DNA of 64,000 nt from Octopus vulgaris (taxonomy: Eukaryota). Below are positions 8,360 through 15,894 of this stretch, piece by piece; the first letter of the stretch is position 1, and each line of letters opens with the position of its first letter. The notes under the pieces were generated by a model that saw only the letters and a list, made by a program, of their open reading frames with translations, was not told the DNA's origin and made no database searches. The DNA is taken from NCBI GenBank assembly GCA_951406725.2, contig OX597815.1, positions 145,700,001 to 145,764,000 on the forward strand, given 5' to 3'. Position numbers and translations under genes: made by a program.

Positions 8360-8442
8360 TTCGAGACAAAACCACTATTTTAAAACCAAACAAGGAAAGA
8401 CTTAATCAATACATAAAATTTTAATATAAATTAAATAAACCG

Positions 8443-8485
8443 CCACTACAAATGTTTCATGTCTGCTCCGACAATCTTCAGGTGG
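8443..8485 (-). ncRNA. Minimal type I hammerhead ribozyme motif (mirror copy)
   Basis: Exact reverse complement of 8554-8596. Confidence 0.75.
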
Positions 8486-8553
8486 ATTTTGGATCTTCTA
8501 ATCAGTATCAAATTTTGACTTCAAAATTTGATACTGATTAGAAGATCGAAAAT

Positions 8554-8596
8554 CCACCTGAAGATTGTCGGAGCAGACATGAAACATTTGTAGTGG
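8554..8596 (+). ncRNA. Minimal type I hammerhead ribozyme motif
   Basis: ccac CTGAAGA t tgtc ggagca gaca t GAAAC attt GTA gtgg. Stem I ccac/gtgg, stem II tgtc/gaca, GUA triplet. Confidence 0.75.
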
Positions 8597-8772
8597 CGGT
8601 TTATTTAATTTATATTAAAATTTTATGTATTGATTAAGTCTTTCCTTGTTTGGTTTTAAAATAGTGGTTTTTGTCTCGAATTATATTATATAATATTTTA
8701 CTATAAAATTGGATTTAACCCTAAATCTGATTTTTCCCTGTAATTTCGGATTCATTCTCTAATATTTATTAT

Positions 8773-10729: not shown

Positions 10730-13462
10730 ATACAAATTACTGCTGTTCAAGCTGACAAAGAGCAGATCTTCCATTAAGTATCAGAATAATTTGATTTTAT
10801 AAAAATTCATGACATTAGTTTATTTGAATTATTTCCCTTAGCTCGAGTTTTTTAATATGCAAATTACCTGTAACGCTTTTTACGTATGTAAAACTCTCAA
10901 GTTTATTGTTCAAGCCGAGACGTTTCACGTGTTGCGTGTGCTTTGTTGGCGACGACTAAGAAAGCTAAAGTATATTCATTACTGAGAGTCTCCCCACTAA
11001 CAAAGATCTTATTCTCCTTTGTGAAAATTTTAATATTTTATTCAATACATATATTTGTTATTTTTTTTATCAACAAGTAATTCTTTATTTATTGAAAATT
11101 TTTTCCCCTATTTTTGTTTGTGAGCCGCTAACGAAATCACTAGGCTTTTGTTGTCTTTCTCCAACTAAGAGAATTCATTAAAATTTTTGTCTACGTAATT
11201 CACTACATCAATACAAATCTGATCGATACATACATATATATATTCATTCATACATTCATCTACGCGTTCATACATGCATTCATACATAAATATATTCTTG
11301 TAGGAATAAAGGCAAAAACCTGCTTTCGTACATATATTCTTATACTCATTGATACATGTAGACTTATTTTCATATATTCATTTGCATTGAAATACACATA
11401 CATAAATACATATATGTATGTACCTACACGCTTCACTCGTACGTATATATATACATGCATATATTCATACATTCATACATATATTTATATATTCATTGAT
11501 GCATATATAAATACAGAGACACAAGCATGCAAAAACGCATACATGCATATATACGCACATACAAACATAAAACATACATACATACATACATACATACACA
11601 CACACACGCCCACACATATGCATACGTACGCACATACTTACAGTCGTATTTACATATACATACATATATATTCCTTCATACATACACACACACACACACA
11701 TATATATATATACGTACATACATAAATTGCGGCATGTATAAATGCATGCACACATAAATTTCTCCATACTTACAGTCGTACATAAATACGTATATCCGTG
11801 TATACGTATATCCGTGTATACGTATATACATTCATTCGTACATACATAAATGTATATATACGTACATACATATATTTACAACCGTACATACATATACATA
11901 TATACATATTTATACACACATCTCACACAGACAAACAAACATGTGTATCACTGGTAGAAACCAGTTAATTAACTAGCAATAAATCACACTGAAAGAATAT
12001 CAAAACATAAAACTCTTTGAAGATTGTTTCTCAAGCCTAGTATTATTGCAACGAAGGAAAGAAGTCATCGGAATTTTGAGGATAATGGTAAGGTAATCGA
12101 GTAGAATTGCATTTGACTATTGCTATGTTTTTTTTCACTATTTTCCCTTTATTTATTTATTTTTTTGTTGCTCAACTAATAAAACTTGGCAAACCTGACC
12201 TCGTTTTTTATGACTATTTTACCATTCTATTAGTATAATCAATGAAATGAAATTTCCTGGAAATCAAAGAATTCTTATTTAGCGTTGTGTTCTTAGCACC
12301 TAACAAGAATCGGTATCGTAAGTTGGATGATCAAAGGCTCTCTGCCAGAACGGAATGTTCTTCTTTCTATTCCCCTTTCCCCCACCGCACGTATTCTAAC
12401 CGCACCCATTATTCAAATGGAAAGAAAGAACGAAAAAAAAAATCACAAAAACAAAGTTTTCTATTCACGTATTCATAAACCATTGATATTAAACTTTGTA
12501 TTTTTCACCAGTTTGAAGAAATCATTAACTTTGATTTTTCTTCAGCAAAATAGCAAAAAAAAAAAAAAAATACACACACGAAAATTAACGTAAGTTTTAA
12601 ACTGTCTTTGTCATCTTCCTCGACGTCGTCGTCGTCGTCCCAAAATCCACTACCCTTGCCTCCTTCACTCACCCGCCACCATCATCGTCGACGTCGCCTT
12701 CACATCGCCGTCATCATTTTACATTTCATTTATTTTTCACAATTTTCATATTCATGGTACTCCGTATGTTTAATAAGCGACAAACCCCAAACCACACCCC
12801 CACGCCATATCCCTGTCGGTGCTTCTTTAATTTATTTATTTCCACCACTCATTCTATTTTTTATTACTGTTTTCCGACAGGAAATAAAGATGCTATCCTC
12901 CCACCCCCAACACCTTCACCATCACCACCCCCACCGCCACTACCGCTTCCATCAACACAAGTCTTATCTACCACCACATCAACCCGTTCCCCTTCAACTC
13001 ATTCCGCCTCTTTATATTCCACATCATTATCATTATCATTATTCACAATACTGTTAGAATCATCGTTAGACACGTCTGTTACTATTTATGAGTAGTTAAA
13101 ACAGAAAACAAAAAAAAAAAGGATTTCCGTCGGTTTCTACGATGAGTGTTTAATTGTTTTCCTTTCATGCAAACTGTCAAATTTAGACCGGACACCCTGT
13201 ATTTTAGGGTTATAAAACTTTGTTATTAATCATTGACTCAATGGGTCTACATCTCGAAATATCTCGTCACCCCGTCCCTCCCCCATAATCTAGTGTGTCA
13301 TTTAGCCCAAAGACTATCCTAAATAAGCCGTGACATTGCTTCCTAGACACGATCATCACGTTTAATCTTCAGAGAAATACGTTTTGGCTTACGGGATGTA
13401 TGTCCACACAAAAATAAAAGGCGTTAGCGCGGGAATGGCTGTGTGGTAAGTTGCTTCCTTAC

Positions 13463-14891
13463 TGCGCATGCGTTGGTTAGTTGCTTCCACACTGAATGCT
13501 GTCAAGACGTGCTTCGTAGCCGTCTTGAAGTGAAGAACGTTTGAATGCGCGACTGTAAGGTAGGCATCTGTTATTTGGGGGGATTTAGTGGGGTTTGTTG
13601 TTTGATATTGTTTTTCTTGTTTCAAATACGAAATCCTCACTGGGTCCTGGATATTTGTCTGCCTGCAGTCGCGCTAAGTGACTCACTTAGTTGTGAGAAT
13701 TGTTGTTTGGGGGCATGTCTTGCTTTCGAAAAATTGTGAAATTTTGAAAAATTCTACCAAATTTGTGGAGAATTTTTTGTGTTCCTACTGCTGTGACCCT
13801 GGAGTACCTGTTTGGAGTACCTTTTTTTGGAATACTCTTTGGCCAGGATTACCGGGTGGCTGGAATTATGCTGCCGTGACTTGAACTGTATTCTTTTTTT
13901 CTCTACTCTGTCTTTCTGTTCTTTTTTGTGTTTTTGAACTTTATTTTGACTTTTTGTTTTGAACTGTTATTGGACTTTTTTCTGCAAGCATGGCAAAGGT
14001 CAACACTGTGTTGGAGTGGGAGATCGTACCCCACAAGCAGTGGTTGAAAGACTTAAACGAGAGAACGGTGATGTTGAGGACTTATTTTAAGTCACTCGAC
14101 ACATCACGGTGTTCCCTCAAATTGAAATTGAAAAATAATTGGGCCGGAGAGAGGAGACCATGTCATGGACTGAAGACCCAGATTGGCCTCCGCAGGTGAC
14201 TACGGAGGTCATCTCGAACGTCGATATGTTCAGGGTGATGGATTCCTTTCCGAAGGACCAGTTTAGGGTCGCCTTCTGGGGCCCCGACCTGGAGCTGGAG
14301 CATTGCCTGCATGCAGCCTGGTCGGGGAGGAAGGATAAAAAGGCTTTCAGTGCCTAAATGTTTATTGTTTGTAAGAGAATTGTGCCACCGACGGTAGAAG
14401 TGACTATCTCACCCCCTAATGGAGAAGAATTACTTGTCTTCTACAGGGGTGGGGAGGTGGAGAAGTACCGAGAGGGAATAGTTCTGGCCTGCACACGGGA
14501 TCCCGAATGGCTTCTGCAGATAGCTGTGGAGGTCATAAAGGTGCCCGTAGTGCAAAGGCTGAAGGAACTCAGAGAGAAGTATCGGTTATGGCCGGGTGGA
14601 ACCGGCATGACACACGCTTTATGCATGAGTGAGGCATGGGAAATGGCGGGATACGGGGTCAGAAGAGATACTGAATTTGAAAAAGATGTTGAAGAAGAGG
14701 ACTACGGGTAAGAGGTAGGAAAGCCTCGTCATTGTAATATTCTAAAAAGATCATTGTTTTCGGAAGACGGCGGTCGGCAGGCGCTGTTCGCTTCCCTCAT
14801 TCATATTTTTATATTCATTTCATCCTATTAATGTAATTGTCCAGCCCGCAGTTACTCTATGTTATGCCCCTGTGGCAAATTGTATGAAATA
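13463..14891 (+). mobile_element. TSD-flanked non-LTR-type insertion with a disrupted ORF and no recognisable RT
   Basis: 15-bp duplication aagttgcttccttac (13448-13462) / aagtagcttgcttac (14892-14906). Terminal AATAAA. GC-richer interior with chained ORFs at 13990-14711. Confidence 0.8.
13990..14711 (+). pseudogene. Broken ~240-codon ORF (one frameshift near 14140, one in-frame TAA at 14355-14357), possibly LINE ORF1-like
   Basis: ORFs 13990-14199, 14139-14357 and 14358-14711 give complex, non-repetitive peptides. The last two share a frame. Confidence 0.6.
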
Positions 14892-15031
14892 AAGTAGCTT
14901 GCTTACTAACCACATGGTTCTCAGTTCAGTCCCACTGCGTGGAACCTTGGGAAAGTGTCTTCAACTATAGCCTCTAGCTGACCAAAGCCTTTTGAGTGGA
15001 TTTGGTAGCTGGAAACTGAAAGAAGCCCGTC

Positions 15032-15143
<112 letters not shown>

Positions 15144-15894
15144 TTGTGTGTCTGTGTTTGTCTCCCACCATCGCTCGACAACCGATACTGGTGTCTTTAC
15201 CTCCCCGTAACTTAGCGGTTCGGCAAAAGAGAACCGATAGAATAAGTACTAGGCTTACAAAGAATAAAGTCCTGTGGTTGATTCGTTCGAATCAACCACA
15301 TGGCTGCTGTCACATGACTGAAACAAATAGAAGTGAGTGTAATTTGAGTTAGATATAGTTGTGATCTCTGGCAGGGCGATGAACGATTCTTAATTCTACG
15401 TTGAGGAGTCAGGTGTAGTTTCTTGATTGCGAGAGGCTCTCCGAATATCTGGTAAACAATGTGGAACCCTTCTCCAGGCTTTCTATTGTGTTGATAGTTA
15501 ATCAAGTGGAAATGTAGAAATGCATAGCTTCAATGATTTTAAAAGGAATTCCCACTCCCATTCCCCCGCCTCTTCTTCTTCTTCTTCTTCTTCTTCTTCT
15601 TCTTTTTCTTCTTCTTCTTTTTCTTCTTCTTCTTCTTCTTCTTCTTTTCATATTTCTCTGTAATTTGCCTTCTCCTCCTGTCCCTCTACTTCATTTTCTC
15701 CTCTTGTTTTTTCCTCTTATCCCCTCCACATTGTCATATACACTTATATATTCTTTTACAGCAAAGCATTTGAGAGGGGCTTCAAAGTCTCGCCTTCCCC
15801 AAACTACACACTACACGCACATATGCACACACATTCACATACACACACACATAAATATCTGACACTAAATGTTGTTTAAGACATCTGTGGTATT

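Follow-up and report, generated by a model that had tools for sequence, protein, structure and literature searches.

A single-copy chimera of two ORF1-only LINE subfamilies, probably a collapsed head-to-tail stack, within a SINE of Octopus vulgaris

The window analysed here is a 64-kb stretch of the 2.8-Gb genome of Octopus vulgaris (contig OX597815.1, positions 145,700,001 to 145,764,000), and genome-wide searches for relatives were run on the same assembly. Within it, a short interspersed element (SINE), at least eight further copies of which are present in the window, is interrupted by an insert of 1429 bp (13463-14891). The insert starts with TGCGCATGCG and is flanked by a 15-bp duplication, the two copies of which (aagttgcttccttac and aagtagcttgcttac) are identical at 13 of 15 positions, as a preliminary description of this DNA had reported. 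Its leader, previously estimated at about 525 bp, measured 527 bp and is followed by an ATG at 13990 and a chain of codons with a final stop at 14709-14711. The terminal AATAAA was also located (14888-14893), with its final two bases inside the 3' copy of the duplication; no poly(A) tail was present at the 3' end of the insert. The two parts of the split SINE carry A-box-like and B-box-like motifs, as judged by eye. ARAGORN found 0 transfer RNA (tRNA) genes in the window, and Rfam returned no tRNA match on one free SINE copy.

A genome search with the insert yielded 1741 candidates, 40 of which were scored, and the relatives covered it as three separate blocks (insert positions 1-680, 679-915, and 915-1433). 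Copies of one subfamily, termed A, contained 790-883 bp of extra sequence between insert positions 680 and 681 (14142/14143; nine copies measured) and, past position 915, ran on into their own 3' untranslated region (UTR). Insert positions 916-1429 corresponded to the 3'-terminal third of another subfamily, B, and at 14377/14378 the sequence jumps from the A 3' UTR to the middle of the B open reading frame (ORF). Both junctions lie at fixed positions of the family; the pattern spanning each of them had the window locus as its sole match in the genome, with up to two mismatches allowed (controls, 0). The divergence of each of the three pieces from the majority of its closest relatives was 4-7%. 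The insert is a single-copy, doubly deleted chimera, made of three pieces from two ORF1-only subfamilies (Table 1), and not the complete UTR-ORF-UTR unit that had been proposed.

The ORF of about 240 codons, earlier regarded as the insert's own, is a patchwork of the ends of A ORF1, the A 3' UTR, and the end of B ORF1, and the chain is readable because both junctions happen to preserve the reading frame. One frameshift and one stop had been counted: the frameshift was found near 14101, where the locus-spanning contigs of two public sequencing runs (X4 and X6) have one extra base, but a further stop lies at 14136-14138, and the stop counted before (14355-14357) is a second one, located in the A 3' UTR. 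The native A stop, TAA at 14336-14338, is present in 17 of the 18 translated relatives (19 relatives, one without translation) and is skipped by the window frame through a 7-bp deletion; the peptide MFIVCKR, formerly read as protein, is translated 3' UTR. No reverse transcriptase (RT), endonuclease, or zinc knuckle had been recognised in the insert, and Pfam gave no match on the three window pieces; the knuckle, however, is present in relatives, encoded within the stretch missing at 14142/14143. Sequence lost at this junction includes most of both RNA recognition motifs (RRMs), the CCHC knuckle, and a basic linker.

Table 1. Features of the split SINE and its insert (window coordinates)
Feature	Positions	Strand	Basis
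SINE head, A-box-like part, 5' of target site	13426..13447	+	resembles free SINE heads and the 5' flank of most family copies; start approximate
5' copy of 15-bp target duplication, 2 substitutions	13448..13462	+	same site duplicated around 53 measured inserts
Subfamily A (ORF1-only) 5' UTR	13463..13989	+	75-87% to positions 1-680 in many loci; 5-6% from closest-relative majority
Subfamily A ORF1, codons 1-51 (RRM1 start); frameshift near 14101, stop 14136-14138	13990..14142	+	aligned to relatives
Junction 1: in-frame deletion of ~830-880 bp at GG microhomology	14142..14143	+	extra sequence of relatives; unique in genome; contig-bridged
Subfamily A ORF1, C-terminal part; native stop 14336-14338, out of frame here	14143..14338	+	translated relatives
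Subfamily A 3' UTR, first 39 nt, including TAA 14355-14357	14339..14377	+	stop position of relatives
Subfamily B ORF1, C-terminal ~110 codons, after junction 2 (14377/14378)	14378..14711	+	junction microhomology 1-3 nt; unique in genome
Subfamily B 3' UTR; last ~40 nt (TGCC-N5-GGCA hairpin sequence, then GAAATA) common to autonomous LINE	14712..14891	+	tail comparison
3' copy of target duplication	14892..14906	+	comparison with 5' copy and free SINEs
Remaining SINE: B-box-like part, body, internal (TA)n(TG)n, tail	14907..15290	+	80-89% to other window SINEs

Hundreds of copies, and an autonomous partner as well, use the SINE site as a sequence-specific target, which the preliminary description had missed. 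The exact junction between element tail and target occurred 265 times genome-wide (control, 0), and a tail-only pattern 712 times. Among the first 30 of these 712 tail loci, 25 passed the duplication test, 2 entered a decayed SINE, 1 was doubtful, and 2 had no element upstream; 27 of the 30 sampled ends lay at one base of the SINE head. Copies truncated at the 5' end, of about 50-350 bp, were joined directly to the SINE head, and target duplications around inserts ranged from 8 to 17 bp. Patterns of equal length gave 292 filled and 30,896 empty targets, i.e., about 1% occupied. SINE bodies were compared for 68 element ends, in pairs that share members and are not independent: elements at least 95% alike (25 pairs) had bodies that were 87% alike on average (range, 73-97%); the corresponding values were 85% in unrelated elements (841 pairs) and 83% among 28 free SINEs. 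Moreover, a T/A marker of SINE subfamilies was equal in the 5' and 3' copies of the duplication in 50 of the 53 inserts, a total in which two stacked loci count twice, and at L127 a private SINE variant was present in both copies. Such diverse SINE bodies and matching markers argue that each copy inserted separately into a SINE already in place, and that insertions of the family are independent events at one fixed base of this abundant SINE.

Family copies with the SINE head and body on either side were mostly 2.0-2.3 kb long. Two of them have open frames, with a single ORF each (414 and 397 amino acids), and tblastn with the ORF2 of a long interspersed element (LINE) described below gave matches only at loci holding that long element. 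Full-length members encode ORF1 only, without ORF2, as in HAL1. The suggestion of an ORF1-only retroposon family was borne out in the parent elements, which are RT-less, HAL1-like, and flanked by target duplications, and in which intact frames and a common tail were found. An internally deleted LINE copy had been named as the case that would overturn it; the window copy is indeed internally deleted, but its parent has ORF1 only to begin with and is no ordinary LINE.

Among four pieces of subfamilies A and B, two matched zf-CCHC above the Pfam cut-off, and the intact family proteins gave a weak match (E 0.008) or none. An AlphaFold model based on a 12-sequence alignment (predicted local distance difference test score, 77) contained two beta-alpha-beta-beta-alpha-beta domains. 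Structure comparison, as earlier suggested, gave RRM matches: the top Foldseek matches were tandem-RRM proteins (hnRNP A1, E 2.5e-5), with a low whole-chain template modelling score, and VIA-align to U2AF65 RRM1 gave a Z of 8.3 (root-mean-square deviation 2.4, 72 residues), a Z near 8 being modest. The family protein, of about 400 amino acids, has two predicted RRMs and a CCHC knuckle, which is the Type I ORF1 layout (RRM and CCHC) as defined in sections of PMC5203782. The signature of the mammalian Type II ORF1 protein (Transposase_22) was not found in it, Pfam giving zf-CCHC only. The ratio of nonsynonymous to synonymous substitution rates (dN/dS), calculated over the first 205 codons or so of 11 copies (55 pairs, one near-identical pair being undefined), was 0.10-0.31 between subfamilies and 0.16-0.45 within them. 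By the values between subfamilies, purifying selection preserved the ORF during their divergence.

A profile search with the family protein returned 456 unnamed relatives, and 5 of the 14 that were scanned matched zf-CCHC (PF00098). In the Atlas, CCHC and ZCCHC3-like clusters were found at 0.88-0.92, which serves as a lead only. The closest named protein matches came from Octopus sinensis and Argonauta; two Octopus sinensis models (P0001 and P0002; LOC115225585, 'K02A2.6-like' protein) contain the retroposon ORF1 and are likely mis-annotated as host genes. Rfam, at the gathering score, detected no ribozyme and no other family on five loci. The 5' ends differ among subfamilies (window 13463-13472, L098, L148, and L152) and often carry GCGCATGCG, CTTCCGG, or GGAAGTCACGT, which resemble NRF1, ETS, and ETS-CRE promoter motifs, respectively. 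These promoter-like motifs at differing ends hint at replaceable internal Pol II promoters. An internal deletion derivative of 106 bp, in which the family 5' start is joined to the tail, was observed at L109. At L046:1685-2460 (G000:C25 near 39.946 Mb), an A copy without its first 24 nt stands directly behind a decayed 18S ribosomal RNA (rRNA) fragment (Rfam SSU_rRNA_eukarya, E 1e-37) rather than a SINE head; it is possibly an rRNA-retroposon chimera formed by template switching.

A different 3' UTR was found in 7 of the 30 junction loci. At three loci (L081, L082, and L084), elements of 5.45-5.5 kb were inserted at the same SINE base, with CCHC in ORF1 and Exo_endo_phos, RVT_1, and zf-RVT in ORF2. 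The layout of this partner comprises two ORFs, with an APE endonuclease, RT, and C-terminal zinc finger in ORF2, as in Tx1 elements; the best match of ORF2 in the PDB was L1 ORF2p (3e-48, against 1e-13 for R2). Its ORF1 matched zf-CCHC (E 2e-5), has an RRM region homologous to the modelled family protein, and is homologous to the ORF of the small elements (24% identity over 156 amino acids, E 3e-14). The SINE head and body also flanked the same base in L081, L082, L084, and L151; L151 is a 3.7-kb autonomous-type copy without much of ORF2. L081 and L082, which both contain frameshifts, agree at 99.5% in their final kb. A search for autonomous L1/Tx1 elements sharing the 5' or 3' end had been suggested. 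The long LINE has in common with the ORF1-only elements the last 40 nt or so of the 3' tail, to which their DNA similarity is confined, but no 5' DNA match between them was found. The hairpin sequence of this tail, TGCC-N5-GGCA, is conserved in 64 of 67 ends and shows one clear compensatory pair (C-G for T-A); 12 outer G-C pairs are possibly register errors of the pattern, and the hairpin is not counted as structural proof. Protein searches for a named Tx1 relative of the partner returned none. Sections of PMC5203782 tie ORF1s with RRM and CCHC to Tx1 in non-mammalian animals. We infer that the partner is of the L1/Tx1 type, the name Tx1 resting on architecture and targeting, and the shared tail and identical target suggest that it is likely the helper of the ORF1-only elements. 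At L041 (G000:C11:47050000-47057800), the target sequence lies behind an A copy, and an autonomous-family ORF2 on the same strand comes further on, which makes a mixed stack of rider and helper.

The family would then move as follows. The ORF1 protein likely coats its own element RNA, as purifying selection suggests; the ORF2 protein of the 5.45-kb LINE likely binds the shared tail, and a nick made by its APE endonuclease at GGT/AAGTAGCTTGCTTAC of the SINE would serve to prime reverse transcription. Mobilisation in trans by target-primed reverse transcription, which the preliminary description had put forward for the insert, is most likely correct at the level of the family, judging from the duplications, the shared tail, and a partner at the same site. 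Insertion leaves the 8-17-bp duplication, which recreates the target, so that a second element can land behind the first. Stacks of this kind were seen with A followed by B (L031 and L038), with another subfamily followed by B (L185), and at two further loci (L095 and L152); both A-then-B stacks also have large internal deletions, a frequent feature of old copies. Among the 13 closest B copies, two lie directly behind another element, as does L038, compared with the occupancy of about 1%. With stacks known, B copies behind elements above that rate, and deletions at L031 and L038, a collapsed stack is the simplest reading: the window copy would have started as A and B stacked head to tail, with two internal stretches lost afterwards. 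We consider it probable that the insert is a dead A-then-B chimera at the fixed SINE base, most likely formed in this way.

Other origins would explain parts of these data. The presence of the same SINE flanks on nearly all copies, and of SINE variants shared at 94-97% by some young pairs, could mean that an insert entered a SINE once and that head, insert, and body then spread as a unit by the SINE machinery. The flanking SINEs, however, are as diverse as free SINEs, 5'-truncated copies still abut the SINE head, several SINE subfamilies were used with 5' and 3' markers matching, and the same base is used by the unrelated 5.45-kb LINE; this origin is largely refuted and very improbable. Still harder to credit is that the 1.43 kb form a complete unit with a 240-codon gene of its own, or, as had been considered, that a lineage-specific host gene was retrocopied, even though the frame happens to survive both junctions and an annotated Octopus sinensis 'uncharacterized protein' (P0001) matches the family. 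The junctions are single-copy, the frame is broken by stops and shifts and takes in translated UTR, and the protein is a homologue of LINE ORF1. A processed retrocopy was rejected, with no spliced junctions and no poly(A), and so was the reading of the deletions as spliced introns: the missing stretch starts with CA, ends with GG rather than having GT-AG ends, and is coding in relatives.

Several observations count against the account preferred here. No second element followed any of the 28 element ends of an unbiased sample, the middle duplication expected of a stack is missing, and the three pieces are of equal age, a pattern compatible with a template switch no less than with a stack. Because of these equal ages, some weight goes to a single insertion in which reverse transcription started on B RNA, switched to the 3' UTR of A RNA, and skipped about 850 nt; both junctions have a mere 1-3 nt of microhomology, and a single duplication surrounds the whole insert. 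Yet a single outer duplication is expected of a stack too, large internal deletions are frequent among old copies, and genuine A-then-B stacks with deletions of their own exist (L031 and L038); we regard a template switch as an unlikely origin. As for the assembly, a 31-letter rule applied to contigs bridging a junction: junction 1 was spanned in two of four public runs (X4 and X6), while junction 2 was crossed in all four with 69 and 29 letters, below this rule. An assembly error is therefore an unlikely source of the chimera. Regarding the target, near-identical elements lie in SINE bodies with a slightly higher mutual similarity than those around unrelated ones (87% versus 85%); L081 and L082 are 97% alike in the initial 128 bases of the SINE but differ in the SINE tail. 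CTAAC stands in the 5' copy and CTTAC in the 3' copy of 3 inserts out of 53, and the duplications of truncated copies are often 8-11 bp long; the element's own 5' end may therefore supply part of the 15-bp 'duplication'. Trans-mobilisation by the partner ORF2 protein is deduced from the shared tail and identical target; with helper ORF1 24% identical and a DNA match outside the tail not found, the true parent or helper could be another, unsampled family.

ORF1-present non-autonomous LINEs are described as HAL1 (L1 clade), HeT-A (Jockey), and Ag-Sponge (CR1), and Tx1 is not among the source clades given, in sections of PMC5786205 and PMC5753468. Like these elements, as those sections present them, the octopus family encodes the ORF1 protein alone, probably relies on an autonomous LINE, and has a selected ORF1. 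Unlike them, it has no poly(A) and a strict target inside a SINE, and with its partner it shares only the tail of about 40 nt and 24% ORF1 identity; unlike HAL1, its ORF1 is of Type I (RRM-RRM-CCHC), not of the mammalian L1 type. In the HeT-A/TART/TAHRE telomere arrays, of the Jockey clade, an ORF1-only element stands beside RT-bearing partners at one target, head to tail, with a host function at chromosome ends. In the octopus the targets are instead SINE copies scattered over the genome, numbering about 31,000 or more. Sections of PMC4494074 report Tx1 families of crocodilians and Xenopus (Tx1-Mar/SINEU-3, and the Xenopus Tx1 into Tx1D) that insert into other transposons, together with a non-autonomous rider and tandem insertions; Keno, Kibi, and Koshi belong to the same comparison. 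As in those systems, so far as these sections go, a Tx1-type LINE hits another repeat and a non-autonomous rider uses the same target, with duplications of about 15 bp and tandem insertions sandwiching the duplication. The target here differs, being a SINE head and not a DNA transposon, long terminal repeat element, small nuclear RNA (snRNA) gene, or microsatellite, and the rider is a protein-coding half-LINE, whereas SINEU-3 is an snRNA-derived SINE. Transposons are listed among the targets of non-LTR elements in part of PMC5035012. A recent repeat annotation of O. vulgaris counts L1-Tx1 families (PMC13282606); its main text contains no 'target', 'nested', 'ORF1', or 'non-autonomous', and one of its supplements no 'HAL1' or 'target'. 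No description of a SINE-targeting Tx1 with ORF1-only riders was found in the literature, Repbase Reports, subscription papers, and the PMC4494074 supplements lying outside the search. ORF1-only LINEs and transposon-targeting Tx1 elements are each known; their combination on a SINE is apparently undescribed.

We further offer, as a doubtful extension, that the ORF1-only elements may form an old independent lineage (synonymous divergence, dS, up to 2 or more between subfamilies), which would have moved onto its helper via the 40-nt tail hairpin alone and come to outnumber it. B might prefer recreated targets, and the system might prey on the main SINE, splitting the A box from the B box, with the rider ORF1 aiding targeting as in HeT-A/TART.

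Elsewhere in the window, 8368-8671 form a near-perfect, AT-rich palindrome with arms of 151 bp (8368-8518 and 8521-8671) that are 99% complementary and separated by a 2-nt spacer. A similar foldback occurs at L006:1006-1263. We guess that the palindrome is possibly a miniature inverted-repeat transposable element or a Helitron-type foldback element.

The window copy is debris, and it cautions that chained ORFs in such inserts can arise accidentally by deletion and that gene predictors label these ORF1s as host genes (P0001). The family behind it would be a three-level parasite system, made of a SINE, a LINE that targets the SINE, and protein-coding half-LINEs that ride the LINE. This system would provide a new APE target sequence, with copies recently active (99.5% alike over 1 kb), and bears on recognition by the tail, and not by poly(A), among elements of the L1 group. 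Moreover, with selection visible on ORF1, it allows a direct test of why non-autonomous LINEs retain this gene.

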